NCBI GenBank assembly: GCA_020723065.1
Contig: DYJP01000002.1
Location: 7,464 to 71,463, forward strand
DNA: 64,000 bases
Reading direction: 5' to 3'
Source: Candidatus Micrarchaeum sp.
Lineage (GTDB): Archaea > Micrarchaeota > Micrarchaeia > CABMEP01
A model generated the notes under the pieces. It made no database searches and was not told where the DNA came from. It saw only the letters and a program-made list of their open reading frames with translations. Shown here one piece after another: positions 6,386-57,628 of this stretch. The position numbers were made by a program, and so were the translations under genes. Positions within the stretch are counted from its first letter, which is position 1, and the number at the start of each line of letters is the position of its first letter.

Positions 6386-8341
6386 TCAACAAATACCACA
6401 TACTGTACGTACCGACTTCGCGTTGGAAAGAAGCCCCTCTACAAACGGATTCGGCATGTAATATTCGTTGTAGATCCTGTTGGAGATCTCTCCATTGAAT
6501 CCATTGTCTCCGGAAACTATTCCATACAATGAGAGATAGGCTCTTACAAGCGAATCATTCGGGAACGAATTCTTAGCCTTGTTTTCATAATATCCTAATG
6601 TCTGGGCCACGCAACATATGTTTTTCTGAATTCCTTCATAAGTGTCGCAACTGCAATGAGGATTGGAAAGGAACAGTTCTCTTGCTGGAATTCCTCCTGA
6701 ATCATACTGCCCCTTGTAGGCCAATGCCGCCATCAGAACTGAGGCATCTATCTTATTTTCAGATGCCATATTTTTTATAAAAAGCGAGTTCTGCATGCAA
6801 TAGCCTGCATCGAACGAACCAGGCAGCACGGACTGCATGTCTATACAGAAAAGATTCCCACATTGGGTGGTGCTCACCGTCTTCTGAAGGTTTATCTTGT
6901 TGTAATCCGTTACCTCAAGGTCGAGTATATCATTATTGTATCCATACTGGTTGCACTGTGAAGCGACATTGTCTCCTGCTTCAGAGAACACTGCGAATGA
7001 TGAGTATGTGGAAGTGGGTGAACTGCTCGAATAGTATATTGTGCAGAACAGACCAAGACTGTTCAGCCCTTCCTTGGGCAAGGATGAAATGTCCTTAATT
7101 GATATTCCGATGACACCTGATCTTGAAAGGGCTGAAATTGATTTTATCAATGCTTGATAAAAGTCACCTATAGTTGTATTTGTCCAGGTGCAGGTTTCTT
7201 TCTGGTTGGTTCCCTGCCTTACATCTATGTCCAGAATCATGGTCGGCTTCCCGTATGTTTCAATGACGTGCTGCGCGAATGCTTTTATGGAGCTGTCCTT
7301 TTTCACATTTGAATCGGCATCATACTCCTTACTGTACAATATTATATTTGGCTCGCAACTTTCAAACGAATTTACATCCACCGTAAATCCTACAACATCT
7401 ATGCTATCCATGTCTCCGGAAGCCTTGTAGAAATCGAGTGTTTCAGTATCATTAAACCTAACAACCGCTACAGTCAAGCATTTTGGACACCAGGACTTTA
7501 TGGATGAAAAGGTTCCGCTTGGACTCCTTACGTTTTCAGTATTTAAGGATCTTTTTATAGAGTAACCAAAGCCGGGAGCAATAAACGCCGCACCTTTTTT
7601 GTTAGCTGCTTCGGCAAGCAGACTTGGGTATTCTAGATAATTGTATTTATAAAATGGGATTGTTCCGGAACTAAGGATGCAATCTGAAAGAAATTCCACT
7701 TCAGAAGCATCCACCTTTTGAGATTCCAATTTTAATATGATGAATCCCAAATTTCCTCCACACAACGACTTAAATTCCTCTCCCACGAATACAGAATCTC
7801 CAGTTCCAATCATTACGGTCTGTATGAATGTTCCGGTTGATTTCATAGTGTTCGATCCAGAATTTATTATGGCTTCAAGAGCCGATTTCTGCGTTGATTG
7901 AGTTAGATCAAACTTTTTCAATGAGCAGTTGCCTCCCGCCAAAGACGCCACTCCTATTTTTTTCTCAGATGTGAACATACTAACCAGGGAATCCCAAATC
8001 TTTGTAAATATAGATGCTTCCTTATAGTCACAAATGAGTGCAGTACAGGTATTCACTTCCTTGACCTCTTTCTGCTGATATTCTATAGTTTCTGCGGAAA
8101 GATATGAAGTGAACGTTGCCTTCTTAATGCATCCGAAAAGGAACAGTGTCGAAAACGCCAATAAAAGTAAAAGATAATTACTCTTCATAAGACCACTAAA
8201 TGAAAGAGATTCAATCTGAATCGTCTGGCCCCTCAGACTTGTCTTTTGAATCCTTTTTCTCTTTCTTGTATTCCAAAAGCTTCTTCTCTTCATATTCAAT
8301 TTCCTTCTTCTTTTCATACCATATCTACTTCTTTGGTTCAT
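6386..8341 (-). CDS. Large cysteine-rich exported/anchored protein of unknown function, last gene of the membrane-paralog operon
   Basis: A very basic N-terminus (RRRK/KRKR) is followed by a hydrophobic signal/anchor YLLLLLAFSTLFLFGC. About 590 extracytoplasmic residues carry ~20 Cys (CPKC, CGGNCS, CSCDTY...ICCVAQ). An alternative start at ATG 8188 (MKSNYLL...) is possible. An SD-like GGAG lies upstream of the 8341 start. Confidence 0.5.
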   Translation of the reverse strand: MNQRSRYGMKRRRKLNMKRRSFWNTRKRKRIQKTSLRGQTIQIESLSFSGLMKSNYLLLLLAFSTLFLFGCIKKATFTSYLSAETIEYQQKEVKEVNTCTALICDYKEASIFTKIWDSLVSMFTSEKKIGVASLAGGNCSLKKFDLTQSTQKSALEAIINSGSNTMKSTGTFIQTVMIGTGDSVFVGEEFKSLCGGNLGFIILKLESQKVDASEVEFLSDCILSSGTIPFYKYNYLEYPSLLAEAANKKGAAFIAPGFGYSIKRSLNTENVRSPSGTFSSIKSWCPKCLTVAVVRFNDTETLDFYKASGDMDSIDVVGFTVDVNSFESCEPNIILYSKEYDADSNVKKDSSIKAFAQHVIETYGKPTMILDIDVRQGTNQKETCTWTNTTIGDFYQALIKSISALSRSGVIGISIKDISSLPKEGLNSLGLFCTIYYSSSSPTSTYSSFAVFSEAGDNVASQCNQYGYNNDILDLEVTDYNKINLQKTVSTTQCGNLFCIDMQSVLPGSFDAGYCMQNSLFIKNMASENKIDASVLMAALAYKGQYDSGGIPARELFLSNPHCSCDTYEGIQKNICCVAQTLGYYENKAKNSFPNDSLVRAYLSLYGIVSGDNGFNGEISNRIYNEYYMPNPFVEGLLSNAKSVRTVCGIC

Positions 8342-8348
8342 AGCCTAT

Positions 8349-10859
8349 CTACTCCTTCTTCTCGTAACCGAGCTTGGGGGGGCTATATTTCCTTATGAAC
8401 TCTTTCGCGTAAGTGAGCGCCTTGTCCCGGTATTCCGATTTCGGAGATGCGGAAAGGACTATCTGTTCCCGTTCCATCTTGATGAGAAGATCATTGAGCG
8501 AATATCTCTGCATCAACCGCGTATCAAGAGTGAAGTCTTCCTCGACAGGATCAATGTTTCCTGCGAGCATCTCACTGAACGTCTTGTCGAACACTGTGCG
8601 CCCAATATCCTTGTTTTCAACTAGATCGATCCTTTCCAAGGCGAATTTAACCTCTTCGTCCTTTGCGTAAGGCGACATCAGTCTGTTGAAAAGAAGCTCG
8701 AAAACTTGGTCCTCATCCTTTCTTAATATTGTCGCATCAAACATCTGCCTCGCGGTTGTTTCGTCCAGCACCGGCTTGTCCCCGTAATAGTCCTCGGTCC
8801 GATTGTAAATATCGGCAAGAAAGCTATTTGCCTTGTTTGTTAGAATGTCGAAGGATATGAGCGAATTGAATGCGGATTGCTCCTTTGTTTTCACATCGTA
8901 GGAGCTGTTGTACTTTTCCACGTCGTGAAGGAACTTGTCTACGGAAGCCTCAAGGTTATTTCTTGCAGATATGATGTTGTCCATCCTCTCTTGGAAAATC
9001 TTGCCTTCCTGCTTTTCCAAGCCAACCAGAAGCGAAACGACCGCCTCTCTCTTTTCCTTTGATCCGAGAATCTCCTTTTCGATCTCGGCTTTTAATTTGC
9101 CGTCTTTTTCGGAGACATATTGGTCAAGCATGTTGTTTGAGATTCCCAACTTTTCGCTGACATTAAGCTTGTTTAGCAGTTCCTTGTATTCAGAATTTTT
9201 CACAAGGGAATCTTGTTTGGACACTATCTTAGTAAGAAGCGGGTCCAGCTCGCCCTTTTCAAGCTTCTGCACTCCGTCGTTCTTTACGGCCAGCTTGCGC
9301 TTATCGAATTCATTTAGTGTAAGATCGTTTAAAATGGCCGCAATCGAATCCACCCTCTCTTTCTCGGGAGTAATGGCGTTCATTGCGTTCTTATAATGCT
9401 TACTGTTCTGCGGATCCCCCATGATGTCCAGGACGTTTTTATTTATCATGTTCAGGCTCTTTATCATTTCGGCAATGTATATTCTTTCCAGCTCTATTTT
9501 CGTCTGGACTACTGCATCGATTTTCTTTGCGATTTCCGGATGTTCGGAAAAGTCCTTGGTCACCTTGAGCCCGACCTGCTCACGCAAGTCCTGGAAAAAG
9601 TTCGGATTGAGCGCCCTTCCGGGATCCCTTATGTATTGCACGTATTCACTAAGTATATACGTGTCTACGCTCTTCAGCTCTTCTTTTATAATTTCAGGAT
9701 TAATGCTTTCCAGTTCCGCTTTTTTAGCAAGAGTAAGCGCGGAAAGCGCCTTGAGGTCCTTTTCGTATTCCTGGATCTTCTTGACATACTGCTGCATCAT
9801 TTCATTTATCTTTTTTTCAGCCTGGTTTGCTCTCCAAATCTCCCCCTCCGTCCTTGCCTTTGCCTTTATCTTCTCTAATTTTTCCTTGCGCTTTTGCAGC
9901 GTGTTCACCCTACTCTTAGACGTTGCCAATCCTTTCATCAACTTGCTTCTCACCCCGAATTGGTTCAGTCTTCTTGCAAGCTTGAGCATCCTGTCCTGCT
10001 CTGATCTAGAAGTATAAACTTCCATTAGTTCTGCATATTTGTTTCTAGGCGTGTATTTCTCCAAAGTATTAACGGCCGAGAGCGAATTCAAATCTACATT
10101 TTTCGCTTTATAGAATGCAACGGCAACCGAAGTGAATACTTTTGCCATAGTACCTTTCATCACAGAAGTGCTTGTTTTTAACGAAAGCTTGGTAACGCGA
10201 GGCACCTTAATTCCTTTAACTTTGGGCATAGTTATGTCGAAAGCGGACATTGGCTTCCTTCCGGATGCGTAAAGTGCTGCTGCAAGAACACCTATAAACA
10301 AGAATACTATGAACCAACTTGAATCCACAAGCTCCTTAAACGAAAATACTGAAGATGAAAAGACGGTTTCGAATCTTTGAGTTGGAAAAAAAGTGGAATC
10401 GCCTTCAAAACGGACTTTTATTACTGCCTCATTTGAAGAAACTGTGGCAATGCAGAACCCTTTTCCTTCTGAATTGGTTATCCAGTTGCAAAGCTTAACT
10501 TGGTTAGATTGATCATTTGGATCAACCAAGTATGCAACAACCGATTGCCCCGCAACTGGCGAGAGACCGTAATTGCTAGATATGACTGATGGATCGATTT
10601 GGCCTGTCTGAGCATATTCAGCCAAAGTCTGTTTTGACTCTGGAAGAACGAAGCTAGATAATGTTGCGGATATGTTTAGGCTGGTAGTTGAAATGCTTGC
10701 AACTCTAAACTCTGAAAAATAAGTAGAAGTTTTAGTAGCGGCGAATATCATTTCAGAAAACAGAATGGTAACTAAGAAAATGCTTAGATATGAAAAGAAC
10801 AGTTTACGGATGCAAGGCATTCCAATGCATTTTCTTCTTAAAACCATATCTCTCCCCAT
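8349..10859 (-). CDS. Bitopic membrane protein: N-terminal signal/anchor, ~170-aa extracytoplasmic domain, TM helix, then ~620-aa K/E-rich coiled-coil cytoplasmic domain
   Basis: N-terminal hydrophobic segment FFSYLSIFLVTILFSEMIFA and a second TM WFIVFLFIGVLAAALYA. The long tail has a heptad-like K/E/L pattern with no Walker motifs. Confidence 0.5.
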   Translation of the reverse strand: MGRDMVLRRKCIGMPCIRKLFFSYLSIFLVTILFSEMIFAATKTSTYFSEFRVASISTTSLNISATLSSFVLPESKQTLAEYAQTGQIDPSVISSNYGLSPVAGQSVVAYLVDPNDQSNQVKLCNWITNSEGKGFCIATVSSNEAVIKVRFEGDSTFFPTQRFETVFSSSVFSFKELVDSSWFIVFLFIGVLAAALYASGRKPMSAFDITMPKVKGIKVPRVTKLSLKTSTSVMKGTMAKVFTSVAVAFYKAKNVDLNSLSAVNTLEKYTPRNKYAELMEVYTSRSEQDRMLKLARRLNQFGVRSKLMKGLATSKSRVNTLQKRKEKLEKIKAKARTEGEIWRANQAEKKINEMMQQYVKKIQEYEKDLKALSALTLAKKAELESINPEIIKEELKSVDTYILSEYVQYIRDPGRALNPNFFQDLREQVGLKVTKDFSEHPEIAKKIDAVVQTKIELERIYIAEMIKSLNMINKNVLDIMGDPQNSKHYKNAMNAITPEKERVDSIAAILNDLTLNEFDKRKLAVKNDGVQKLEKGELDPLLTKIVSKQDSLVKNSEYKELLNKLNVSEKLGISNNMLDQYVSEKDGKLKAEIEKEILGSKEKREAVVSLLVGLEKQEGKIFQERMDNIISARNNLEASVDKFLHDVEKYNSSYDVKTKEQSAFNSLISFDILTNKANSFLADIYNRTEDYYGDKPVLDETTARQMFDATILRKDEDQVFELLFNRLMSPYAKDEEVKFALERIDLVENKDIGRTVFDKTFSEMLAGNIDPVEEDFTLDTRLMQRYSLNDLLIKMEREQIVLSASPKSEYRDKALTYAKEFIRKYSPPKLGYEKKE

Positions 10860-10919
10860 TATATTTAATTGATTTATATATAAATGCTTTCCGATTTGCT
10901 TAAATTTACAGATATAAGG

Positions 10920-12113
10920 CTATATGAGTTTTGCTAAACCTTCAGCAAAGTCCTGAGCATCCACATTAAGGAATATGGAAAATGACTTTATGAATGTATA
11001 AGCAAGAACTGCTGCAATAAATGGATAAGCAACTCCGAATATCACCATCTCCCCAATTATTCGCTGCGTATTGGTCATATATGAGATTATGGATGTACTT
11101 TGATATTCTGTTTCACCTATTGAGCTAGTAAATAAGTCCATTGTTTTTGAAAATATTCCAGCAGAAAGTATGTCTGTCAAAATCGGACATGGTACGGCAG
11201 ATAAAAGTGTTGCACTGGTGACACCAGATGTTCCACAAAGGCCGTCAACCCCGCCCGAAGTTGTCCCAAGTACCATCAATATGCTGTATGATATCGGATA
11301 AACGAAATAAAGCCCAATTGAAACGGCAATAAGCAGGTTTCCGACAGAACGAACTACAGGAAAGCCCCTTAAGACCACTCCTACTGGAAGAAACACAGTA
11401 AGCATTGTTGTTTGAATAAAGAGCAGGAGCTGCTTTTGGAAAAAGAACATGTAAATTATGTATGAAATATCTGAAAGCAATCTGTTTATGGCACTTATCG
11501 GAACGCTAAGACCCATTTTAGCAATCTGAGTGACAAAGGAAGACGATGAAAGAACTGAAGATATGCTTCCTAGTGCTGAAGGAACTGAAATGCTCGAAAT
11601 AACCTTATTTGATTCTATTGTATTCAAGACCATCGGAATAGCAACAAGGCAAAATCCATCCTCGTATCGCTTCTGGGCACACACGAGTGTTCGGTTCATA
11701 TAATATTCTGCAACCACAAAGGGAGACTTGTCATTGGCCAAAACAGTTTGAAGTGCGATGCGGTCTTTCGACATTATTCCGACAAATTCTGCAGACTTGC
11801 TTGCAAGGACGTCTACGAACATAATTAGAAATGACAAAAGCACAACTGTAGATATTGCATAAATGAATTCTGATTTCGCAAGCTTCTCCAGGTCACTGGA
11901 TTGAAAAAGCCTTCCAAACATGAATGTAAGAGCCGAAAATGAAAATGAAATAGTCACAGCTATTACGGCAATCAATTCCCAGGGAAAGTCAACCGAATAC
12001 CAAGTCTTTGAAAGTTCCGAAGCAGGTGTTGTTGATGAAGAATAAGTTGACTGTGCTAATGAGATGGAAACGAAAGCCAGGAAAAATACAAACCAATTCG
12101 ATATTCTTCGCAT
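10920..12113 (-). CDS. Paralogous polytopic membrane protein, family member 6 of 6 (397 aa)
   Basis: Signal-like N-terminus. Shared motifs SDLEKLAKSEFIYAISTVVLLSF, LPVGVVLRGFPVVRSVGNLLIAVSIGLYFVYP, and C-terminal tail ...AQDFAEGLAKLI. Confidence 0.6.
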   Translation of the reverse strand: MRRISNWFVFFLAFVSISLAQSTYSSSTTPASELSKTWYSVDFPWELIAVIAVTISFSFSALTFMFGRLFQSSDLEKLAKSEFIYAISTVVLLSFLIMFVDVLASKSAEFVGIMSKDRIALQTVLANDKSPFVVAEYYMNRTLVCAQKRYEDGFCLVAIPMVLNTIESNKVISSISVPSALGSISSVLSSSSFVTQIAKMGLSVPISAINRLLSDISYIIYMFFFQKQLLLFIQTTMLTVFLPVGVVLRGFPVVRSVGNLLIAVSIGLYFVYPISYSILMVLGTTSGGVDGLCGTSGVTSATLLSAVPCPILTDILSAGIFSKTMDLFTSSIGETEYQSTSIISYMTNTQRIIGEMVIFGVAYPFIAAVLAYTFIKSFSIFLNVDAQDFAEGLAKLI

Positions 12114-12140
12114 ACGACCACTAAAAATTACAATACATAA

Positions 12141-13772
12141 CTATATTATCTTCCATATGGAGGCAATATCCATTTCAGAACCAAGCGCGCTAGACAGGCC
12201 TCTTATTCCCTTAGATATTACCGTAAGATTAAGTATTGGAAGCAGAATTCCGGCAATGAACGAGACTACAACCAGATCGAAAAGTTTTCTTATTGATTCG
12301 GATATTGTCGAATCAGAACTGGCGCTTCCTACTATTGTTTGTGAATATGAAGATGTTAGCAAAGTTGTTTGTGTATCCAAAACTTGAAACTGTGCAGACG
12401 GTGACGTTTCGGAAATAGCATAGCTTGCTGCGAGAAGATAGTTTACATCAGATTCAGTCAGAATTGTCTTTGTACAAACTTCATTTGGAGCAGCACCAGT
12501 ACAAGCCCTAGAGGCACACTCTCTCCAATCACCGCACTTTTCCCCATTTGATTTCTTAGGTATGCAAACCTTTCCACCTTCGATCTCATTTGAAACTGTT
12601 CTGTCCCCCACATAAATTGTACTGTAGACATGACTTGTCGAATTGCAAATGCCAGATATGCATTCCGAATCTTTAGTGCACTCTACCCCGTTTGCCTTCC
12701 CTATCTCACATTTTCCAGTGATTGGATTTTTCACAAAACCCTCACAGCATCGTATTGCAACCGAACCTTCTCCACCACAGGAACTACAGTTCTTCCCGGA
12801 AGAAGTCTGCTCACAGTATCCAGACTGGCATTGATCATCTGTCTCGCACGGCTGACCAACATCTTTCAATGGAGAACAAAGCTTAAGATTTTTAGATTGA
12901 TCGAATTCACACATATGCGAATAGCAGTCAAAATTGTTTGTGCATGAAAGTTTCTCAAATATTTCATCTGAATTAACATATTTGTCTACCATTGCCTGAT
13001 TCAAAAGCAAAACGAAAGGAATTAAGATATAAAGACTAATGCCTGCGCCAAGAAGTGCACCGCCAAATTTACGGAAAGGCAAGATGGATCTAAGAACCAA
13101 CCCTATAGGGACCAAAAAGAACAATGTTAAATACGGGACTATCTTTATTATATGAAGCTGAACCACGGTCAACAAGTATGCAGACAAGGCTATCCCATAA
13201 AGAACAAACGTTGAATCGGAAACATATTTTATCGGGTCTGATAATATCTCGAATGTTTTAGATGGTGTTGCATAGCCTTCAACAGATACAGTGGAAAGAA
13301 GCTGCAAGCTTGCTCCTATCGCACCTATTGCGATAGTTGTTTTGCCTAAATATCCAGAAAGTCTAGAAAGATATGATTCGGCAGCAATGAATGTAGGACC
13401 TTCCTTGCCGAAAAGATCGCTCACAACATCGCTACACATAAAGCCGACTATCGCAGTAATTGACACCAGGATAAGTGCGGTGAATACTAGCTGATAAAAC
13501 TCATTTTTAGACTTAGAAATGAAAGAATTGTCGATCGTAGAACCGTACATGTACATAAATCCGACCAGTAAAATTCCAATAATAAGCCCGATGAAGGCGG
13601 TTGCCCTCCAATCATTTATTGAAAGCATGAACTCGCATCCTGCTGTTTGCGCGCTTTCTGCCGTTACTGCGGCTTGAACAAAATAAGAAATGAAAAAGAA
13701 TATGAATAGTGATCTGAATAGAACTGAATCCTGGAAAGTTCCTAAATTCAAATTAAATTTTTTGGAGTCCAT
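12141..13772 (-). CDS. Paralogous polytopic membrane protein, member 5 (543 aa), with a disulfide-rich extracytoplasmic insert
   Basis: Shared motifs KNEFYQLVFTALILVSI and VPIGLVLRSILPFRKFGGALLGAGISLYILIPF. A ~110-aa insert carries repeated C-x(3-4)-D-x-C-x-S-G-x-C modules (CETDDQCQSGYC, CTKDSECISGIC, CTNNFDCYSHMC). Confidence 0.6.
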   Translation of the reverse strand: MDSKKFNLNLGTFQDSVLFRSLFIFFFISYFVQAAVTAESAQTAGCEFMLSINDWRATAFIGLIIGILLVGFMYMYGSTIDNSFISKSKNEFYQLVFTALILVSITAIVGFMCSDVVSDLFGKEGPTFIAAESYLSRLSGYLGKTTIAIGAIGASLQLLSTVSVEGYATPSKTFEILSDPIKYVSDSTFVLYGIALSAYLLTVVQLHIIKIVPYLTLFFLVPIGLVLRSILPFRKFGGALLGAGISLYILIPFVLLLNQAMVDKYVNSDEIFEKLSCTNNFDCYSHMCEFDQSKNLKLCSPLKDVGQPCETDDQCQSGYCEQTSSGKNCSSCGGEGSVAIRCCEGFVKNPITGKCEIGKANGVECTKDSECISGICNSTSHVYSTIYVGDRTVSNEIEGGKVCIPKKSNGEKCGDWRECASRACTGAAPNEVCTKTILTESDVNYLLAASYAISETSPSAQFQVLDTQTTLLTSSYSQTIVGSASSDSTISESIRKLFDLVVVSFIAGILLPILNLTVISKGIRGLSSALGSEMDIASIWKII

Positions 13773-13780
13773 TAAATCAC

Positions 13781-14917
13781 TTATAATTTTTTGATTACTT
13801 CTGAGAAATCCACATCGGATCCGAAGAAGTACCCAAGCTCCTTTGCAACTATAATCGTTATAGTAAAGTCAATTATAGGTATTATCGTAAACAATAAAAA
13901 TGCGAATGACGCTTCGTTGAATAAGACAAGCGGGTTCAAATATTCATTTAGCAACGATGGAAGTTTAGATACAGTATTTATGGAAAAAGCCAATGAAGCA
14001 AATATTGAATTCGTATCATCCTTAAATGAAGTTTCAAGATTCGTCATGAACTTGCCCATTTCTGTATTCTGGGTTCTTGCATCCAGAATATCACTCCATC
14101 CCCCTGGCTTATTCAGAAGTGTATCTACTATTGTTTGATTAATTACAAATGTAAGTGGATAAACTATGTAGAACGAAATTGCAACAACAATCAGAAAATT
14201 ACCAACATTTCTTAAAAAAGAAAAGGTTCTTAATAATAAACCAACTGGCAGAATCAGAGTAAATGCAAGCTTATCTATAAAGTCTAAAAAGTATATCTGC
14301 ATTGTAGTAAGTCCAAGAACTGAAGCAGAAGAGGTTAATATGAAATTGACCATGTTAATTATACTTTCAAAAATAGAGCTTATTGCCCTATCTATGTCAA
14401 ATAAAGGTACTTCCGCAATTTTCGTAAGATAACTGTTGCCAACCACTAATGCAACTTTGAACATATTGGCTGAAGTGACGATTGAAAGCACATATTTTTG
14501 AACGGAAGAAAGATAGATCTTAGCGTTTTCTATCGCTCCGTTTGGATGCTCCACTGTGGCTGTAAATCCGTAAGCCTCAAAAACCATATTCTCTATCTTT
14601 ATCGCTGAAAAGAATAGGAAAACCACTAGCGACATCATGATTACCTGATATAGCTCATTGTTTGCCCAACCGCCCAATTCCCTGACTCCAAAAACCTTGG
14701 AAACCATAAATGCAAGAGAGATAACACCGAGATTTAAGAAGAGCGCTGCAAGAACTATTATTTCCCACGGCAGCGCTCTTAAATTGTAAACTACGACCGA
14801 ATCTTCCTGAGCGAATGTCGCTGGAATTAAAGCAATAATAATCATAAGAACAAAAATGAACGGATGGACACTATATGATTTGAAAGAAGCCGTTCCTGTT
14901 TTTTTAATTTCATTCAT
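13781..14917 (-). CDS. Paralogous polytopic membrane protein, member 4
   Basis: Shared motifs NNELYQVIMMSLVVFLFF and LPVGLLLRTFSFLRNVGNFLIVVAISFYIVYP; tail FGSDVDFSEVIKKL. The start is trimmed to MNEIKK (ATG 14915-14917), which removes the 47-nt overlap with the upstream gene; the track start is 14980. Confidence 0.55.
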   Translation of the reverse strand: MNEIKKTGTASFKSYSVHPFIFVLMIIIALIPATFAQEDSVVVYNLRALPWEIIVLAALFLNLGVISLAFMVSKVFGVRELGGWANNELYQVIMMSLVVFLFFSAIKIENMVFEAYGFTATVEHPNGAIENAKIYLSSVQKYVLSIVTSANMFKVALVVGNSYLTKIAEVPLFDIDRAISSIFESIINMVNFILTSSASVLGLTTMQIYFLDFIDKLAFTLILPVGLLLRTFSFLRNVGNFLIVVAISFYIVYPLTFVINQTIVDTLLNKPGGWSDILDARTQNTEMGKFMTNLETSFKDDTNSIFASLAFSINTVSKLPSLLNEYLNPLVLFNEASFAFLLFTIIPIIDFTITIIVAKELGYFFGSDVDFSEVIKKL

Positions 14918-14933
14918 GTGATCACGATAAGTG

Positions 14934-16148
14934 TTATATAAGTTTAGAGAATCCAGCAAGATCCACGTCTCCTCCAACAAGCTGGGAGAATTCCTTAATG
15001 AATGAGACTAGTCCATAGATAGAAATTATGAATGGAACAAGGATCCATACTGAAAGCACCGAGAGATTATCAAGAAAACCACCGGGCATTATTGTTCTAA
15101 ATATAGTGTATGATATTCGGTCAACTGTATTTCCTTCGGATGTTTCAACCCAAAGATATTTCGTAGTTAAATCCTTTGAGAATTTCACAACTCCTGTTGC
15201 CCAGTCTTTATTTGATTCATCGATATTTTCAGAAACTACTACAATTCCGCCAGTTCCTGCTGCGGAACTTTCAGAAGGAACGTTTGAAATTTGGGACGTT
15301 TCAGCGGTTATAAACTGGGAATTGTCTGAAAATGCAGATACAAACGCATTTGGATCAGGTGAAAACAAAGTCGTCGAAAATACTATAAGCATCGGATATA
15401 TGAAATAAGTTCCGACTGCTATTGAGAAAAGAAGACCGCCCACCCCTCTGAATAATGATATTGACCTCAAAGCAAGACCCGCAATTATTAATGCTGGAAA
15501 GAGCGACTTCATTACAAAAAATAAAAACATTGAATTGGCCTTCAGAAGTATAAGAAGGTTGAAGCCGATTTGAATAAAGTTTGAATAGATTTGGCTTATA
15601 TTGGAGAGAACCGCCAAGGGGGTCGCTTTAAACGCACCATAACCCATAGATACTCCGGCAAGGAGATCGACCCAACCTGCAGAAACCACTTTGTTTGCAA
15701 GATAATACCGCACCACATCATAAGTGTGCTCTAGCTGCGTTATTGCAATCACCATATGGCAAGGAAGTTCGTCTCCTCCGCAGCTCACCTGTACCATTTT
15801 AACTGCAGCATTGAGATTCTCTGGACTTTCAGTAATTATTCCGTACTTTTGGAATTCTATCTTATTGAATGTGCAGTAATCTGTGCTGCAAGAAAGGCTG
15901 AGCGCTGGATTTATCGCAGAAATTACGCCATACATCAGATTGTTCGCTATAGCGACCATGAGCACAGCAGAACTCAGAAGAAATGCTGAAGCAAAAATCT
16001 GGTATATCTCATTCTGGGCCCATTTCTTTAAATTGTCATTGTCGAGGGCCCTTGCGATCATGTAGAATAATGAAATGAAGGCTAAGGAAATCACCAAAAT
16101 TAAAGAGGTGACGGGAGCCCAAGCCTGAAATATCATTTCATATACCAT
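14934..16148 (-). CDS. Paralogous polytopic membrane protein, member 3 (404 aa)
   Basis: Shared motifs LKKWAQNEIYQIFASAFLLSS and IIAGLALRSISLFRGVGGLLFSIAVGTYFIYP; tail VGGDVDLAGFSKLI. Confidence 0.6.
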   Translation of the reverse strand: MVYEMIFQAWAPVTSLILVISLAFISLFYMIARALDNDNLKKWAQNEIYQIFASAFLLSSAVLMVAIANNLMYGVISAINPALSLSCSTDYCTFNKIEFQKYGIITESPENLNAAVKMVQVSCGGDELPCHMVIAITQLEHTYDVVRYYLANKVVSAGWVDLLAGVSMGYGAFKATPLAVLSNISQIYSNFIQIGFNLLILLKANSMFLFFVMKSLFPALIIAGLALRSISLFRGVGGLLFSIAVGTYFIYPMLIVFSTTLFSPDPNAFVSAFSDNSQFITAETSQISNVPSESSAAGTGGIVVVSENIDESNKDWATGVVKFSKDLTTKYLWVETSEGNTVDRISYTIFRTIMPGGFLDNLSVLSVWILVPFIISIYGLVSFIKEFSQLVGGDVDLAGFSKLI

Positions 16149-16163
16149 ATAATCACTTTAAGC

Positions 16164-17054
16164 TTAATCTATGCTATCCAAGAAATTTGTAAATGTCTCT
16201 ACAAATGAAACAGTAATTGTAAAATTGATCAAAGCGAGAAATGTCGCTTGCGGAATCAGAATCGCCATCTGGTCAAAGTAGCCTAAAACATCTATAATTT
16301 GTGAAGATAACTTAAATGTTTCTAAAGGTTCAATAGTTGTCTTTGCAAGACCGTTGAAATTCGGATCAATTGTGTTGTATATTGCATAGTCCATAACGTA
16401 GGTCATTGGAAATACAATATAAAGACCAAAGGCTAATGCCATTAGGAATGAGCCTCCTTTGCGCATCATTGGAATCGTTCGCAATACCATTCCGAGTGGA
16501 AGCAATAATGTCATCGCAAACGCCTCCGAAAACTGAATAAGTATCAATTGAGCATGAAGACTTCCTACTATCACATTGAACAAGGATCCAAAAAGACCTA
16601 TTATCTTAGAAAAAGGAGTGAGCACTTTTCCTGGAGAGAATTTAACTGAACTCTTAGCCGCTGGAAGACCGGTTTTAATCTCTAAAGATGAAATCATGTC
16701 GATAATGAAACCACTGACCCAGAGATTTTGAATTGTCGGAAGCCCTTTCTTATAGATAAGGGTCGTAAGATATTGGCTGCTTGCGGTGAACTGGTTTCCT
16801 TCCCCTATAGTGCTCTGCACCAGATTCTGTGCTGCCCCGCAAGAGGCAGTGGCAAGCCCAACTATTACAACTGCAACTATCAATGCAACGAAAAGCTGAC
16901 TTAGTTCTTTCTTTGCCATCGCCTCGAATTCGCTCTTAATAAGAAGCCTACCGAGCATAAACAGCAAGGAAACAAATGCAAGCGTGGTAATTGAAGCTAA
17001 ACCTATGAAAGTCCAAACATCAATTACAGGCATGCATGCGTCAAGAACAACCAT
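16164..17054 (-). CDS. Paralogous polytopic membrane protein, member 2 (296 aa, minimal core without a large insert)
   Basis: Shared motifs EFEAMAKKELSQLFVALIV and LLPLGMVLRTIPMMRKGGSFLMALAFGLYIVFP. Confidence 0.6.
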   Translation of the reverse strand: MVVLDACMPVIDVWTFIGLASITTLAFVSLLFMLGRLLIKSEFEAMAKKELSQLFVALIVAVVIVGLATASCGAAQNLVQSTIGEGNQFTASSQYLTTLIYKKGLPTIQNLWVSGFIIDMISSLEIKTGLPAAKSSVKFSPGKVLTPFSKIIGLFGSLFNVIVGSLHAQLILIQFSEAFAMTLLLPLGMVLRTIPMMRKGGSFLMALAFGLYIVFPMTYVMDYAIYNTIDPNFNGLAKTTIEPLETFKLSSQIIDVLGYFDQMAILIPQATFLALINFTITVSFVETFTNFLDSID

Positions 17055-17066
17055 ATAAACACCAAA

Positions 17067-18755
17067 TCATATCAGTCTTCCCATTTCTATTATTTTTGTT
17101 TCGCCACCAAGTGTCTGTGATATTGACTTAAATGAACCTACAAATATCGCTATGGTAAGTGCAAATGTAAAAAATATCATCAATGGCGGAAACATTATCT
17201 TGTCTATATTATCTGTAAGATACAGAAACAAATAACCCGAGGAAACGGGACTCAGTGCGACACCAATTAATGATGCATCTGAAGCAGTTGAAAGCAGGCC
17301 CTTCATAAATGTATTGGTGCCGCTGAAAAATCCTTTTATTCCGGATGCAGTAAGCCTCAAATAGCTTATATCATTCAACTCATTTTCCTTTGTTGATGCT
17401 GACAATTTGCAATAAAAACTAGACCAAAGCCCTTCTTTGCAGGGATCTCCAAAATAAAAGCTGTAATTGTCGATATACTGCAAGTTCTTCTCTTCCGACT
17501 TAACAGCTAAAACGATCGTATTTTCATCGTCTGCCTTGAATGATGCAGAATTTAATGCTTGAGTTATATTCTGACCTACAGTAACTGCACCTCTTCCAGT
17601 AAGCTTGAAACAGTTTGTCACATCAAATTTAGATGTATATGGTATTCCATCTTGATCATAAGTGGTAATAGTTTCTTCTCTAATTGTCTTCCAGTAAACA
17701 TAATCCTTTGGAGGCAAATTAGCGTAAATTGAAGATTCAAAAGAAGATGAAATATCAGAAACATAAATTTTGTAATTCAATATATCGTTACACTGAACCT
17801 GTGACCAAATAGAATAATTGAGCGGTACAAGCGCCTTCCATTCGAATTTGTCGCTTTCATTGAGATAATACTTTCCTGGAGCTGGCGAAGTCTTGAGATA
17901 CAGTCCAGCGCCAGTGGGATCGAAGTTTGGCAATTCGCCTAAGATGCCACTACCTGGTTCCATCTCTGTATACAATATATTTTTCATCTCAATGTACATT
18001 GCGTTTGAAACTATAAGCGAAATAGGATAGATTATGTAAGCTGCCAAGGCAATTGCAATTAAGGTGGAACCTGTTTTCCTACTCAATGGGAAGGCACGAA
18101 GCAATACACCCAAAGGCAATACGATTGGAAGCATTGTCTTTTGAATTATATTAAGCAATTCGTGCTGAACAAACATTGCAAAAAACATAGGTTGCATAAA
18201 GGATTCAAAAGATGAAAGCGGGCCTAAAAGCATTCCAAAGGGGCTTCCATATTTTAAGCCAAAATTACTTACAATTGCTGCAAAACTTCCCAACAACCCA
18301 GGAAGATTTACACTTGCAGCAGAAAGTAATGCAGTAAGCCAGCCTATTTTAAATTCGAAAGTTGAAATGAAAGTTATAATCGTTTTAAGAGAAATGACGT
18401 GAGTATATGCCTCTATAAGATCAGCTTGTGCAGTGTCAAGAAATGCGGCAGCAGATTCATAAGGAGTTTGACCGACATATGCAGTAGTTAGTGCAGTAAT
18501 AATTATTATCAATGAATATGCAATTCCAATCAAGGCTCCAGTAAATATGAATTCACTGAGCTCCTTTTTCGCCCAGCCTTTCAACTCATTAGACTGGAAT
18601 GCAGTGGAAAACATCCATGCAAGAGAACTCATTATGGCAGAAAGAATAAGGGACAACACGCAGGTTGCGAACCAGTTTCCATTTTGAAAAACAGAATCGA
18701 TTGAGGACTGGACTACTGTTGTAAACGTGCTCATTTCTGTCGCCATTAATATCAC
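17067..18755 (-). CDS. Paralogous polytopic membrane protein, member 1 (562 aa), first gene of the block
   Basis: Shared motifs NELKGWAKKELSEFIFTGALIGI and VLPLGVLLRAFPLSRKTGSTLIAIALAAYIIYP. A ~250-aa extracytoplasmic insert is present. Tail LGGETKIIEMGRLI. Confidence 0.6.
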   Translation of the reverse strand: MILMATEMSTFTTVVQSSIDSVFQNGNWFATCVLSLILSAIMSSLAWMFSTAFQSNELKGWAKKELSEFIFTGALIGIAYSLIIIITALTTAYVGQTPYESAAAFLDTAQADLIEAYTHVISLKTIITFISTFEFKIGWLTALLSAASVNLPGLLGSFAAIVSNFGLKYGSPFGMLLGPLSSFESFMQPMFFAMFVQHELLNIIQKTMLPIVLPLGVLLRAFPLSRKTGSTLIAIALAAYIIYPISLIVSNAMYIEMKNILYTEMEPGSGILGELPNFDPTGAGLYLKTSPAPGKYYLNESDKFEWKALVPLNYSIWSQVQCNDILNYKIYVSDISSSFESSIYANLPPKDYVYWKTIREETITTYDQDGIPYTSKFDVTNCFKLTGRGAVTVGQNITQALNSASFKADDENTIVLAVKSEEKNLQYIDNYSFYFGDPCKEGLWSSFYCKLSASTKENELNDISYLRLTASGIKGFFSGTNTFMKGLLSTASDASLIGVALSPVSSGYLFLYLTDNIDKIMFPPLMIFFTFALTIAIFVGSFKSISQTLGGETKIIEMGRLI

Positions 18756-18876: not shown

Positions 18877-21438
18877 ATGAATCCAATTGAAGCCAAATGG
18901 CAGAAAGAATGGGAAAACAGCAATCTTTTCAGCTCTTCAGTTTCAGAAAAACCAAAATTCTATCTTGTTTTCGCATATCCTACTGTTTCTGGAACACTCC
19001 ATATCGGGCATGCAAGAAGCTATTCAATACCAGACATAATCGCCAGATATAAGCGAACCAAGGGGTTCAATGTCTTTTTCCCGCTCGGATTCCATGCAAC
19101 TGGAGTGGATTGTGCAAAAATCTATGAAGAATGCAAAGTCGATCCTTCAAAAGGAACCAAAAAATACGGATTAGAGGAGAATGCAGCCAAATCGTTCAAA
19201 TCTCCACTTGATGTCGACAAATATCTTGAGAAAAGGATAATCTCTGCGCTGAAAAGGATGGGGCTCAGCATAGATTCCAGCACCGCAGTATCTACGATAG
19301 AACCGCATTACAACAAATTCATTCAATGGCAGTACAAGCGTCTCAATGATCTTGGCTATCTCAAGCAGGGAGACTATGTCCTTCCCTACTGTAACGAATG
19401 CCAACAGGTGATAAGCATTGATGCTGCGCAGGCGGAAATAGCGGAAGGAGCAGAAGCTGAAGTAAAGGAATATGAAGTGCTCAAATTCAAAGATGAGAAC
19501 GAAACTATTTATCCGATTGCAACACTGAGGCCTGAGACAGTCTTCGGAGTCACTAACCTTTGGGTGAATCCTAAATCAGACTACGTTGAGGCTTCAGTTG
19601 ACAGTGAAACCTGGGTGGTAAGCCAGCATGCAGTGGAGAAGCTCAGAAACCTTGGCAAAAATGTAGAAGTCAAAAAGAAACTTAAGGGGATAGAGCTAAA
19701 AGACAAAGAAGTTTCGAATCCTGCGAACGGAAGCAAGGTCAAGATAATACCTGCGACATTCGTAGACTCATCTGAAGCTACTGGAGTGGTCATGAGCGTG
19801 CCCGCGCACGATCCCTATGATTACAGACATTATAAGGAAGCAACAAACGCTGACGACAGCATGATACCATTTGTGGTTGATATGCGAATGAACGGAATTC
19901 CAAGCGCAATAATCCTCCAAAAAAACAAGGGAGATGCAGAAGCCGCAGTAAAGGAACTCTATAAAATGGAATACCGTGGAACAATAAAGAAAGACATCCC
20001 TGTTATAGGCGGACTTCCGACTGCAAAAGCGAAAGACGCGATAATCGCCTATCTTTCTCAAAAAGGACTTACGGATAAAATTTACGAGTTCACAGTGAAG
20101 GAAGTGAAAGATAGGTTCGGACATCCTGTTATAATCAAAAGCATAGGCGGACAATGGTTCGTGAATTATGCGGACCAAAAATGGAAAGGTCTGGCTAAGG
20201 AATGCGTGGAACAGATGAACACTTATCCCCCAGAGTACAAGAAAGAGCTTCCAGGAATAATCGATTGGCTGAGAGGAAGACCACTCATCAGAAAGAGGGG
20301 ATTGGGAACTGAATTCCCGTTCGCAAAAGGGTGGATAATCGAGGCCCTGTCTGATTCCACAATCTATATGGCGTTTTATGTTATTTCCAAGGCGGTAAAC
20401 ACAGGAAAGCTTAAGGTCGATGAAATTGACGACGCATTCTTCGACTATATTTATCACGGAAAGGAGGGAAGCCTCAAGTGCAGCAGGGAAGTCGCAGATC
20501 AGATCAAGAAGGAATTCGAGTACTTCTATCCCCTTGACCTTAATTTCGGAGGAAAGGAACACAAGACAGTGCATTTCCCGTTCTTTATATTCCACCATGC
20601 TGCGCTATTCGACAAAAAGTTCTGGCCGAAAGGGGTGTTCGTCAACTGGCACCTAATAGTTGAAGGAGAAAAGATGTCCAAGAGCAAGGGCAATGTAGTT
20701 TTCTGGGACGATGCGATAGAAAAGTACGGAGCAGACGCGATCAGATTCTACGAAGCACACGGCACCAGCCAATGGAACGACTTCGATTGGAAGAATGCAG
20801 AAATGGAAAGGTACGCGATTCATCTTGAAAGTATAAAGAAAATGCTAGACGAAATGATCTCTGAAAAAGAAAACAATCTCGAAATCAACAAATGGGGAGA
20901 AGCGATGTTTGCAAAGAGACTAAAGGCGTTAGAAACTGAATTCGAGAAATACGAAATAAGAAACGCAGCCTCACTTGCATTCTTTGAGATAAGAAACGAC
21001 CTACAATGGCTCAGGAGCCGAGGTGGAACGCCGAGCAAGAAGCTGCTATCAGACTGGCTAAAAATACTCAGTCCGTTCATACCCCATGTCGCAGAGGAAT
21101 ACTGGCATAAGCTTGGAAATAAAACGTTCATATCGACCGAAAGCTGGCCGGAAGCCAGAGAAATAAACGAAAATATACTGAAAGCGGAAGAAGAAGTAAG
21201 GACCCTAGTGGATGACCTCAACAACCTAATGAGAATTGTAAAAGAGAAAAAGACCAAACTTTACGTATACTCGATGCCCAATGAGACACAATATCTCAAA
21301 GATGCCTCTGAATTCATAAAGCAGAGATTCAAATTCGATGAAGTGAACGTTTCTTCCGTAGCCGACAAGGAAAAATACGATCCGATGAAAAAGGCAAGCA
21401 AGGCGAAGCCTGGCAAACCCGCTATATACCTCGAATAA
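18877..21438 (+). CDS. leuS: Leucyl-tRNA synthetase
   Basis: Class I aaRS motifs HIGHARSY and KMSKS; 853-aa archaeal/eukaryal-type LeuRS layout. Confidence 0.95.
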   Translation: MNPIEAKWQKEWENSNLFSSSVSEKPKFYLVFAYPTVSGTLHIGHARSYSIPDIIARYKRTKGFNVFFPLGFHATGVDCAKIYEECKVDPSKGTKKYGLEENAAKSFKSPLDVDKYLEKRIISALKRMGLSIDSSTAVSTIEPHYNKFIQWQYKRLNDLGYLKQGDYVLPYCNECQQVISIDAAQAEIAEGAEAEVKEYEVLKFKDENETIYPIATLRPETVFGVTNLWVNPKSDYVEASVDSETWVVSQHAVEKLRNLGKNVEVKKKLKGIELKDKEVSNPANGSKVKIIPATFVDSSEATGVVMSVPAHDPYDYRHYKEATNADDSMIPFVVDMRMNGIPSAIILQKNKGDAEAAVKELYKMEYRGTIKKDIPVIGGLPTAKAKDAIIAYLSQKGLTDKIYEFTVKEVKDRFGHPVIIKSIGGQWFVNYADQKWKGLAKECVEQMNTYPPEYKKELPGIIDWLRGRPLIRKRGLGTEFPFAKGWIIEALSDSTIYMAFYVISKAVNTGKLKVDEIDDAFFDYIYHGKEGSLKCSREVADQIKKEFEYFYPLDLNFGGKEHKTVHFPFFIFHHAALFDKKFWPKGVFVNWHLIVEGEKMSKSKGNVVFWDDAIEKYGADAIRFYEAHGTSQWNDFDWKNAEMERYAIHLESIKKMLDEMISEKENNLEINKWGEAMFAKRLKALETEFEKYEIRNAASLAFFEIRNDLQWLRSRGGTPSKKLLSDWLKILSPFIPHVAEEYWHKLGNKTFISTESWPEAREINENILKAEEEVRTLVDDLNNLMRIVKEKKTKLYVYSMPNETQYLKDASEFIKQRFKFDEVNVSSVADKEKYDPMKKASKAKPGKPAIYLE

Positions 21439-33819: not shown

Positions 33820-33925
33820 GCAGGGGTGCCAGAGCCAGGTCAAACGGGTCAGATTCAGTATTGAAGACCAAGCTTAGGACCTGATGCGCGTAGGCGCTGC
33901 GTGGGTTCAAATCCCACCTCCTGCA
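33820..33925 (+). tRNA. tRNA-Leu (anticodon TAG), class II with long variable arm and a candidate 19-nt intron at non-canonical position 30/31
   Basis: Acceptor stem GCAGGGG/CUCCUGC with discriminator A. T-arm GUGGG-UUCAAAU-CCCAC. Variable-arm hairpin GCGC-GUAG-GCGC. Removing 33853-33871 restores a perfect anticodon arm UCAGG-CUUAGGA-CCUGA. The D-arm pairing could not be resolved by eye. Confidence 0.55.
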
Positions 33926-36002: not shown

Positions 36003-37688
36003 TTAAACTATTTTCACCAAATCTCTTGCAACATTAAAGATGAATAGAGTTATTGGCAGAAACAAGATGAAATAACCTATAAATGTCCTTAACCTTCCTT
36101 CCTGGAACGCTATGAAAATCGAGGCCAGCAACACATATATAACCAGATATGCCTGAACCGCTTCAAAAGAAGCGGAAAGCACCGCATTCTTAAATTCCAA
36201 CGAAGTCGCATCCTGTCCGGGGGGCTGTATTCCAGAGATAATACCCAATATAACCGACAGAATGATCGGAACCATTATGCATCCGCCAACAAGTATGGTG
36301 TACTTTTGCAAGGACAGAGACGACGCTTGCTCCTTGGTCAACATGTTGAGCTCAAATATGTCTTCGGCGGTTTCCTTTATTGCATGATGGACGTCCTTTC
36401 CGGTCTTATAACACTGAATAAGAAGTGAAATGACGCGATCCAAAAGTATCGAATGGTTCCTGTCCTTCATATTCAACAACGCATGAATTGGATTTATCCC
36501 GATTTTTATCTGCCTTTCAGCTTTTTTAAACTCTTTAGACAAAGAATGGTAACCTGAATCCCCGATGTTTTGTATTATTTTCTCCATAGGGATCCCAAAT
36601 TCCAATGTGGCTGCATAAAGCAACGCATCCGGAAGATACTGCTCAATCTCATTTGACCGCCTTTCGATAAACCACAGCAGAACTAAGTAGACGATAACAG
36701 GAATGAAAAGAATAAGGAGACAGTATATACTGAAAAAAACAGCTGCTGAAATTGCAACGACAGAAGAAACAACGGAAACGGCAATAATGAAATCTTTGAA
36801 CTTTACGTCCAATCCGAGATTTCGAAGCTCTTCATTAAGCATTAGTATTTCGCGCTTAGAAAACAGTGGTTCGGAAACGTTCGTAAGCACGGAAGGAGTG
36901 GAATATTTAATATAAAATATAAGTAGGATTTCAACAACAGGAAATACGAAAATAAATATGAACCAAATGTCCGAAGGCGAAGTCGGAGAGTCGAGATACA
37001 ATCCAGCCACAACCACATAAGCAAGGTACATCGTTGGTGCTATTGCCGATACGGCAATGAACATCAGGCTCATGAAATTAAGCTTAGCTGAAAACTCCTT
37101 GAAACGGAAGCGCTGGGAATTGATCAATTCGTCTGCACTGTGCTTTAATTCTGAACCGTCCAATCCTTCTAAATACACGTGAATCAGCTGAACTATAAGC
37201 TTCTTTACTATCTGTGAATCTACCCTATCGGCCATTTGCCTTAAGGAATCCGGAATAGTGGCTCCTCCTTCCACCATGTTTACGACTTTCTTGAACTCAT
37301 AAGAACATTGATAATTGGAGTCTGCAACATTCTTCAGAGCAGATTCGAAAGGAACTTTCATGTTGATTTGAATTCCTATAGAACGTATTGCAATTGGAAG
37401 ATCTGATTCGATGCGCATCGCCCTAGATTTGGCAAATTTCATAGGAAGTCGCTTAAATATTAAGAAAAATAATAGAGAAAGTACTGCCGCAAGTACTATG
37501 GATGAGATAATATCGAAATATCCGATCTGCTGCGCAAATGCAGAGAACAATAAGCCTAGGATAACACTTCCAAATGAGATATACCGCAGATACTGGCTTA
37601 CTGAAAATGGAAAGTCCGATTTATACAATGAAATGCTCAGTTCCCTTTTCAGATCTGAAACATACTGTTTTTCTTGGCCATTCTCCAA
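36003..37688 (-). CDS. FlaJ/TadC-like polytopic membrane protein (type II secretion F-domain family), pilus assembly platform
   Basis: 561-aa multi-TM protein immediately downstream of, and co-oriented with, the FlaI-like ATPase. It has two cytoplasmic helical domains between TM blocks, as in FlaJ/TadC. Confidence 0.6.
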   Translation of the reverse strand: MENGQEKQYVSDLKRELSISLYKSDFPFSVSQYLRYISFGSVILGLLFSAFAQQIGYFDIISSIVLAAVLSLLFFLIFKRLPMKFAKSRAMRIESDLPIAIRSIGIQINMKVPFESALKNVADSNYQCSYEFKKVVNMVEGGATIPDSLRQMADRVDSQIVKKLIVQLIHVYLEGLDGSELKHSADELINSQRFRFKEFSAKLNFMSLMFIAVSAIAPTMYLAYVVVAGLYLDSPTSPSDIWFIFIFVFPVVEILLIFYIKYSTPSVLTNVSEPLFSKREILMLNEELRNLGLDVKFKDFIIAVSVVSSVVAISAAVFFSIYCLLILFIPVIVYLVLLWFIERRSNEIEQYLPDALLYAATLEFGIPMEKIIQNIGDSGYHSLSKEFKKAERQIKIGINPIHALLNMKDRNHSILLDRVISLLIQCYKTGKDVHHAIKETAEDIFELNMLTKEQASSLSLQKYTILVGGCIMVPIILSVILGIISGIQPPGQDATSLEFKNAVLSASFEAVQAYLVIYVLLASIFIAFQEGRLRTFIGYFILFLPITLFIFNVARDLVKIV

Positions 37689-37702
37689 AATTTACCACGA
37701 CC

Positions 37703-52037: not shown

Positions 52038-52114
52038 AAACTCACTACGCAAGACAAGTATACAATAAAAGATTGATTGTAAAGAAATTAAAAGGTTAGT
52101 GTGAAAAATGATAT

Positions 52115-54061: not shown

Positions 54062-54065
54062 TAGA

Positions 54066-57233: not shown

Positions 57234-57239
57234 AATGAG

Positions 57240-57467: not shown

Positions 57468-57555
57468 CTTAACTTAATTTCTTTTTTATTTTTTCTTTAT
57501 TTTTCTCATTTTTGATTTTTATATATTTAATTAATATTGGTCTGTATCTAATTAG

Positions 57556-57628
57556 TGGGGTCGCTGAGATTTGAACTCAGATCAACAGCTCCCAAAGCTG
57601 TCAGCATACCAGGTTAGCCCACGACCCC
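57556..57628 (-). tRNA. tRNA-Pro (anticodon TGG)
   Basis: Acceptor GGGGUCG/CGACCCC with discriminator A. Anticodon arm ACAGC-UUUGGGA-GCUGU. T-arm CUGAG-UUCAAAU-CUCAG. CCA is not encoded. Confidence 0.8.

Follow-up and report, generated by a model that had tools for sequence, protein, structure and literature searches.

The 64,000-nt stretch of DNA analysed here (the window; contig DYJP01000002.1 of Candidatus Micrarchaeum sp.) contains two adjacent genes on the minus strand that encode a Cys-rich lipoprotein and a large membrane protein, called the partner protein below, downstream of an array of six genes for paralogous membrane proteins. We found that the lipoprotein joins a barrel resembling those of clan GH-A to a C-terminal domain derived from SLT-type lytic transglycosylases, that its closest relatives have lost the putative catalytic residues kept elsewhere in the family, and that the two genes stay side by side in related genomes. 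The reading that we favour, tentatively and at a little less than an even chance, is that the pair forms the core of a Micrarchaeota-specific envelope module, in which an ancestral SLT(/M23)/TIM module cut a polymer and the hot-spring form would be a non-catalytic cap or adaptor. The window is archaeal, with large-subunit (LSU) rRNA at 61267-64000 and an archaeal-type LeuRS gene at 18877-21438. The eight genes occupy a block of 12.37 kb (6386-18755), all on one strand (-), in agreement with the single-strand block of ~12.4 kb described in an initial annotation made from the sequence alone. Both open reading frames of the pair, of 836 aa (8349-10859, -) and 651 aa (6386-8341, -), are present as annotated there, and their conserved homologues identify them as genes. 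The lipoprotein gene has the following parts:

6386..8341 (-): Cys-rich lipoprotein gene, 651 aa as listed; conserved protein from M52 (8188)
8129..8188 (-): signal peptide with lipobox (MKSNYLLLLLAFSTLFLFGC), from the homologue alignment
7019..8071 (-): (β/α)8 barrel of clan GH-A-like fold, from structure model and alignment; codon of Gly206 at 7571-7573
6389..6811 (-): C-terminal helical domain, SLT/lysozyme-like derived, with K-G replacing E-S; codon of K492 at 6713-6715

The segment from 8341 to 8188, which encodes a poly-basic N-terminus, is probably not translated, or at least is unconserved, because the two nearest homologues (77-78% identity) begin at the equivalent of M52 and the frame upstream of this position in one related locus, L002, is open for 6 codons only. 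A Tat signal (KRRSFW) in this upstream extension was considered and dropped, since the extension is unconserved and 35 residues separate the motif from the hydrophobic region that follows. Thus, the poly-basic part of the N-terminus described in the initial annotation is probably a start-codon artefact, whereas the hydrophobic anchor ending in LFLFGC stands. Indeed, the lipobox, L-F-G-C, follows a 15-residue hydrophobic stretch, and its G-C is present in 67 of the 69 aligned family members. The window protein contains 21 Cys, close to the ~20 first estimated; 18 of these are kept by 90% or more of the 73 relatives, a pattern to be expected of a disulfide-bonded protein outside the cell. The protein is therefore best described, as a prediction, as secreted, lipobox-bearing, probably lipid-anchored and disulfide-rich, with a GH-A-like barrel followed by a helical domain.

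The barrel was recognized in a model calculated with AlphaFold2 from the alignment of 73 sequences, with a predicted local distance difference test score (pLDDT) of 88.6 and a predicted template modelling score of 0.87. A model obtained with an input of 6 homologues reached a pLDDT of 41 and was set aside. The segments MILDIDV and VVGFTVD, which had been noticed early on as reminiscent of a TIM-like core, are strands of this barrel, and the fold recognition proposed at that stage did return a clan GH-A-like (β/α)8 fold. The barrel bears conserved Cys and probably several disulfides. Its likeness to clan GH-A (GH10, GH26, GH53, GH5, GH79) resides in the fold: sequence identity is 4-16%, and the window protein matches no glycoside hydrolase (GH) family of Pfam or NCBIfam at E values up to 0.1. 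It also differs from the clan by its conserved Cys and by its fusion to the SLT-derived domain.

Residues ~460-600 form this separate helical domain. In the same region, the distant majority of the family shows an E-S motif, a G-[LI]-x-Q segment, and YNPF and A-Y-x-x-G-like motifs; the E-S, G-[LI]-x-Q and A-Y-x-x-G-like motifs are shared with the family-1 lytic transglycosylases (SLT, PF01464; MltC, EtgA). Pfam SLT is matched by 12 of the 19 C-terminal domains of distant members (best E 1.4e-6), and one distant member with a reported score reaches 23.7 bits against the SLT gathering score of 21.3 bits. Moreover, family profiles match MltC and EtgA, a secretion-system transglycosylase, at the catalytic ES motif. 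The window protein itself has no SLT (PF01464) match in the Pfam search. Its C-terminal domain is homologous by alignment to those of the SLT-type relatives and lacks a core segment of 40-90 aa; compared with lytic transglycosylases, it has K-G for E-S, no GLMQ-type segment and an additional TIM barrel. When the full model was compared with BFVD using Foldseek, the C-terminal part gave weak matches (E 0.17-0.4, probability 0.8-0.99, 140-160 columns) to tail lysin, endolysin, SLT and LT_GEWL proteins. Four relatives (P0027, P0031, P0049 and P0061) carry a C-terminal M23 peptidase, with E values down to 5e-24; no M23 (LytM) domain was found in the window protein in the Pfam search. Two other relatives, P0023 and P0024, have C-terminal extensions of 110-170 aa past the end of the window protein. 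The end of the P0023 extension (…CIAETL…) resembles the CC[VI]A[EQ]TL stretch in the degenerate lysozyme-like domain, a hint that part of this domain was duplicated in tandem.

The 73-sequence alignment splits into two clades. Glu206 is found in 50 of the 73 sequences, and 39 of these 50 also have Glu at position 492, usually within an E-S/T motif and together with an insert of 40-90 residues carrying a GLMQ-type motif. The 18 sequences closest to the window protein have neither the E-S motif nor the insert, and 14 of them carry Gly206. The window protein itself reads Y-K-G where the 39 relatives show x-E-[ST], lacks the GLMQ-type segment, and has Gly at position 206, directly after the strand formed by residues 201-205 (strand numbering is not fixed by superposition). 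The barrel cleft is affected as well: of the polar or aromatic residues of the barrel, 14 reach a conservation of 80% or more in the presumably active 'E' clade, and 8 of these 14 are replaced in the window protein (N140K, W153K, Y183N, E206G, Q226T, Y320D, Y365K and W378L). Neither the SLT-derived domain nor this loss of catalytic and cleft residues was part of the initial annotation. Because the fold, the Cys pattern and the gene neighbourhood are all kept in the window's clade despite these losses, the simplest reading is that the window protein would be a pseudoenzyme kept for a structural or regulatory role. In members of the Gly206 group that have an M23 domain, catalysis may have moved to M23.

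In order to determine how widely this family is distributed, we searched 1.84 billion cluster representatives with a profile of the Cys-rich family using HMMER. This retrieved 123 clusters at E < 1e-3, of which 61 at E < 1e-10. All archaeal-named matches are Micrarchaeota or Candidatus Micrarchaeia, Ca. Gugararchaeum (a Micrarchaeota order) or 'uncultured archaeon'; among them, P0061 of Ca. Gugararchaeum carries the deposited name 'Peptidase family M23'. The single exception, P0006 (NCBI MFN6992523.1), lies on a 1.6-kb contig binned as Fervidobacterium sp., which is probably a mis-binned Micrarchaeota fragment. The paralogue profile likewise retrieves proteins deposited as Candidatus Micrarchaeia archaeon, and the sole GTDB genome locus found belongs to a Micrarchaeia metagenome-assembled genome. 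Since the archaeal-named homologues all fall in Micrarchaeota or 'uncultured archaeon', the family is, as judged from these deposits, phylum-wide in Micrarchaeota (DPANN) and not private to the window genome. None of the eight proteins of the block has a match in Pfam, NCBIfam or PHROGs, and our literature search returned no description of this architecture, the partner gene, the paralogue array or the degenerate clade.

To examine the linkage of the pair and the array, we compared twelve fetched loci (L001-L012). The full eight-gene order occurs in five loci, namely the window, L001, L002, L005 and L009, the latter four being Micrarchaeia. Beyond the block, these loci continue with ACT, M48-peptidase and HSP20 genes on the opposite strand, and the order is kept at identities down to ~35-38% for the Cys-rich protein and ~35-40% for the partner gene. 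L007 and L010 contain a divergent array beside a partner of 1701 or 1913 aa and a lipoprotein homologue. Altogether, the array adjoins the pair in L001, L002, L004 (partial), L005, L009, L007 and L010. The two genes of the pair are adjacent in all 11 further loci examined, even at ~20% identity to the window protein, and also where no array gene lies in the fetched DNA; the pair thus appears, from gene order, as the tightest unit and the array as a frequent third component. A functional link between the pair and the array, as first suspected, is supported by the eight-gene order in four other Micrarchaeia loci and by the divergent array in two distant relatives. The picture of an array with two accessory proteins has to be modified in that the pair is more tightly held together than either is to the array. 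No housekeeping function could be assigned to the two proteins and synteny is kept, the reverse of what the initial annotation had named as evidence against itself.

The partner protein gene and its upstream region are organized as follows:

8349..10859 (-): partner protein gene, 836 aa as listed; probable start 10847, 832 aa
10317..10739 (-): ectodomain, residues ~41-181 (~140 aa), beta-rich by sequence, with the invariant Cys pair C124 and C136
10212..10316 (-): transmembrane (TM) helix (182-200) and juxtamembrane signature Y-A-S-G-R-K-P-M-S-A-F-D-I-T-M-P-K-V-K-G
8352..10211 (-): cytoplasmic tail, residues ~217-836, mostly helical-looking; K/E-rich candidate coiled coil at ~305-395 only
10877..10884 (-): TATA-box-like TTTATATA, in the 60-nt gap, 30-37 nt upstream of the conserved ATG at 10847

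The start at 10847, giving 832 aa, is likely, because L002 has no equivalent of the first ATG (10859) and P0007, a database protein, has this same length. The partner has a hydrophobic N-terminus at residues 16-38 (signal peptide) and one TM helix at 182-200. A basic stretch follows this helix, which implies a predicted single-pass topology with the N-terminus outside and the C-terminus inside. Directly after the membrane, a motif G-[RK]-x-P-L-x-x-F-D-I-T-T-P-[KR] is present in every homologue, whatever its length (521-1913 aa), and the length and sequence of the tail vary by lineage. By alignment, it is this FDITTP juxtamembrane motif, and not the tail, that constitutes the family signature. 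Compared with homologues of 608-610 aa, the window tail has two lineage-specific insertions, of ~100 aa internally and ~120 aa at the C-terminus. The protein has no Walker A motif, and the signal/anchor, the outside domain, the single TM helix and the lack of an NTPase motif given in the initial annotation were all recovered here. Its ~620-aa K/E-rich coiled-coil rod, in contrast, was over-called: K+E amounts to 19% overall and to ~30% only at residues 301-400 and 551-600, the heptad score lies within that of shuffles, and Pro and Gly interrupt the tail at intervals of 30-50 residues. The tail is probably helical; a continuous 620-aa rod is not demonstrated. Searches of PDB sequences with partner profiles (4 and 8 sequences) returned only noise. 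We also considered the TM helix and tail as a seventh paralogue and dropped this idea after comparison with the paralogue profile using hhalign (probability 0.1%).

The 60-nt gap upstream of the partner gene is the sole long one in the block, the other spacings ranging from a 47-nt overlap to 27 nt. Within it, TTTATATA is part of a 27-nt element, CAAATCGGAAAGnATTTATATATAAAT, of which 26 of the 27 positions match in L002, a 78%-identity relative. Its place would suit an archaeal TATA box giving a nearly leaderless mRNA. The internal promoter at 10860-10919 suggested by the initial annotation is thus plausible, and the pair probably has its own promoter in this gap, besides read-through from the array.

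The array itself (10920-18755, -) lies upstream of the pair on the same strand:

17067..18755 (-): M1, membrane paralogue, 562 aa, first gene of the block; orthologue g1 in L001, L005, L007 and L010
16164..17054 (-): M2, membrane paralogue, 296 aa, the shortest, without the C-terminal KLI tail
14934..16148 (-): M3, membrane paralogue, 404 aa
13781..14980 (-): M4, membrane paralogue, 399 aa as listed, with a TTG start
12141..13772 (-): M5, membrane paralogue, 543 aa, with a 22-Cys extracellular insert
10920..12113 (-): M6, membrane paralogue, 397 aa, last gene of the array

A TATA-like CTATATAT is found upstream of M1; translation of M1 may really begin at an ATG that lies a few codons downstream of the GTG given in the list. 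With its listed TTG start, M4 begins 47 nt before the end of M3 (overlap 14934-14980); an internal ATG near 14917 (MNEIKK...), which removes the overlap, is more likely. The six proteins are 21-33% identical to one another over BLAST-aligned segments and share the core motif LPxGxxLRxxPxxRxxGxxLxAxAxxxYxxxP. Five of the six, M2 being the one without it, end in a conserved cytoplasmic tail, G-[GS]-[DE]-x-[DK]-x4-5-[KR]-[LI]-[IL]-COOH, which looks like a docking peptide as far as its sequence tells. PDB sequences searched with paralogue profiles (6 and 24 sequences) gave noise only. M1-M6 are strict 1:1 positional orthologues across the compared loci (L001, L005, L007 and L010): even in the distant L007 and L010, M1, M2 and M3 find their best matches in array genes one to three, in this order. 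On this evidence the six 5-TM paralogues are to be regarded as ancient, positionally fixed and non-redundant. M5 is peculiar in its variable extracellular loop, where 22 Cys are arranged in repeated C-x5-C-x3-G-x-C units (for example CETDDQCQSGYC, CTKDSECISGIC and CGDWRECASRAC); the loop looks like a small disulfide-knot repeat inserted in this paralogue only.

The block is flanked by housekeeping genes in the window and in the related loci. No mobile-element gene is linked to it in the window or in the fetched loci, and a tblastn search of plasmid and phage collections returned zero matches for the cluster. A mobile-element origin is disfavoured by this lack of plasmid or phage match and by the housekeeping neighbours. 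Two phage-type readings, a lysis cassette (holin, spanin, endolysin) and a tape-measure-like protein, were likewise considered, and both were rejected on account of the phylum-wide distribution of the genes, the housekeeping synteny and the absence of phage neighbours.

The envelope module that we favour can be outlined as follows. Since a bitopic protein and a lipoprotein are obligately adjacent, they would interact across or at the membrane, the lipoprotein docking on the partner ectodomain at the outer membrane face. On the cytoplasmic side, the partner tail would contact the conserved loop (LRxxPxxRxxG) and the C-terminal KLI tails of the paralogues. Because the paralogues are fixed, ancient and non-redundant, the result would be a hetero-oligomeric membrane assembly, that is, an envelope complex. 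In bacteria, wall-hydrolase folds on membrane assemblies typically make space for trans-envelope machines or carry out regulated remodelling. By analogy with the specialised lytic transglycosylases of such machines, the ancestral hydrolase module would have cut a glycan-peptide envelope polymer locally, and the hot-spring clade would keep it as a non-catalytic structural or regulatory cap. The cluster is in this sense a phylum-specific variant of the theme of a membrane complex plus an anchored wall hydrolase, with orphan membrane parts and a hydrolase that is dead here.

Several points weigh against this proposal. Clan GH-A enzymes use two catalytic Glu, at the ends of β4 and β7, whereas the Cys-rich family has one conserved Glu, at position 206, and no second one; the ancestral barrel may therefore not have been a classical retaining hydrolase. 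The putative catalytic role of E206 is derived from its conservation and its place after a barrel strand alone, and a protein that has lost the known catalytic residues may still have a new activity. The pair can also be encoded apart from the array: the fetched DNA of three loci, L006, L011 (Ca. Gugararchaeum) and L012, contains the two genes side by side and no array gene. The eight-gene complex is a proposal drawn from its genes, and its contacts are putative. As for the partner tail, a home-made and crude heptad score peaks at ~310-385 and never rises above the 95th percentile of shuffled controls. Finally, we know of no murein or SLT/M23-type wall polymer in Micrarchaeota or in their known hosts.

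That the pair and the array are mere neighbours sharing no function is highly improbable. The array is not next to the pair in three loci, but the pair is adjacent in all 11 further loci at identities down to ~20%, the eight-gene order recurs in five loci, and the divergent array of L007 and L010 keeps its first three genes in orthologous order. A conduit resembling a type IV secretion system (T4SS), for conjugation or DNA uptake, in which the paralogues would be VirB6-like, the partner a VirB8/VirB10-like connector and the lipoprotein a VirB1-like hydrolase, is improbable. The list of parts does parallel the minimised T4SSs of Gram-positive bacteria, whose anchored hydrolases (PrgK, CwlT and TcpG) combine SLT with peptidase or LytM domains. 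A membrane tether (here the lipobox) and polytopic and bitopic neighbour genes are common to both, members of the Cys-rich family carry SLT plus M23, and the EtgA matched by its profile is a transglycosylase specialised for secretion systems. However, no VirB4, VirD4, HerA or FtsK-type ATPase adjoins the cluster in the window or the 12 fetched loci. The paralogues match neither Pfam TrbL/VirB6 nor, with the 6- and 24-sequence profiles, any PDB sequence; the cluster sits among conserved housekeeping genes and has no match in the plasmid and phage collections; the window protein is a catalytically degenerate form of the hydrolase; and the organism is an archaeon without known murein. If the eight genes nevertheless form a trans-envelope machine, this could consist of a six-subunit 5-TM ring or platform, a bitopic spine and an outer disulfide-locked cap, and would have no counterpart among described secretion, pilus and division systems. 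In cryo-tomograms, the envelope of the cultured micrarchaeon ARM-1 bears an unidentified 21-nm barrel at the place where host nanotubes dock (PMC11329633). That such a machine exists, for example as the docking platform formed by this barrel (PMC11329633), is quite unlikely.

The lipoprotein could also be directed at a host or prey cell, attacking or gripping its envelope, with the membrane proteins as anchor or exporter. Most family members keep the ES motif and E206, which speaks for this reading, and yet the clade of the window lost the catalytic and most cleft residues and keeps the gene and its synteny. The hosts identified so far, wall-less Thermoplasmatales and S-layered Sulfolobales, are not known to contain murein. 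Moreover, the obligate bitopic partner, with a tail of up to 1,900 aa, is not needed for a simple secreted weapon. In favour of this explanation, extracellular proteins of DPANN archaea with murein-like transglycosylase and M23 domains have been proposed to act on other cells (PMC8204110; PMC8561730), and Micrarchaeota are ectosymbionts with elaborate contact structures (PMC11329633). Genome surveys noted murein-like transglycosylase proteins among Woesearchaeota and Pacearchaeota (PMC8204110); they also noted that a metagenome-assembled genome of Micrarchaeota encodes an M23B peptidase (PMC8561730). These resemble the present family as surface proteins with bacterial-type wall-hydrolase domains; they are single proteins of other lineages or an M23 annotation alone, with no TIM barrel plus SLT, partner, array or degenerate clade. 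The family also occurs in Ca. Gugararchaeum, which is proposed to be host-independent (PMC8561730). On balance we consider a weapon or adhesin unlikely.

A complex that remodels the cell's own envelope or acts in division, in the manner of FtsEX-EnvC or LytM-factor systems and with the window protein as a dead regulator, is a minor but real possibility. The phylum-wide conservation and the housekeeping neighbourhood are consistent with it, and the bitopic partner could pass a signal across the membrane. Degenerate hydrolase regulators (DipM, EnvC and NlpD) are a familiar theme, and the LytM-factor pseudoenzymes among them also keep a wall-hydrolase fold after catalytic loss and work with a membrane complex. 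The folds differ, however, the window protein being a TIM barrel plus SLT and not LytM, and there is no FtsEX-like ABC partner. The cluster has no linked gene for a cognate active hydrolase, an ATPase or a known division protein, profile searches revealed no sequence relation to FtsX, EnvC or MreC/D, and no self wall polymer is known in Micrarchaeota. This explanation overlaps the envelope module with a non-catalytic cap rather than excluding it.

Micrarchaeota are among the few DPANN archaea that can be grown with their hosts. The present analysis turns eight hypothetical proteins into a defined phylum-wide module composed of a lipoprotein with wall-hydrolase folds, an FDITTP partner and six fixed paralogues, and the clades with and without catalytic residues provide a natural split. 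It supplies concrete candidates for the existing proteomes and tomograms of ARM-1 and Ca. Micrarchaeum, as well as signatures for annotating more than 100 protein clusters that are now unnamed or called only 'M23 peptidase'. It also leads one to ask what polymer would be the substrate of an SLT/M23-type enzyme in a symbiosis of archaea without known murein.

Three further features of the window were observed. A type IV pilus-like locus at 36003-39091 (-) encodes a T2SSF/PilC-like membrane protein (561 aa) and a T2SSE ATPase (462 aa); the locus lies ~17 kb from the cluster, and no other ATPase of secretion type was seen in the window. Two Rfam tRNA matches, at 33820-33925 (+, 106 nt) and 59611-59721 (+, 111 nt), were not reported by ARAGORN and are probably both intron-containing archaeal tRNA genes. 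Lastly, the G+C content is 27-33% at 52000-60000, compared with ~40% elsewhere, in a region that includes a response regulator, a PAS histidine kinase and topoisomerase I.

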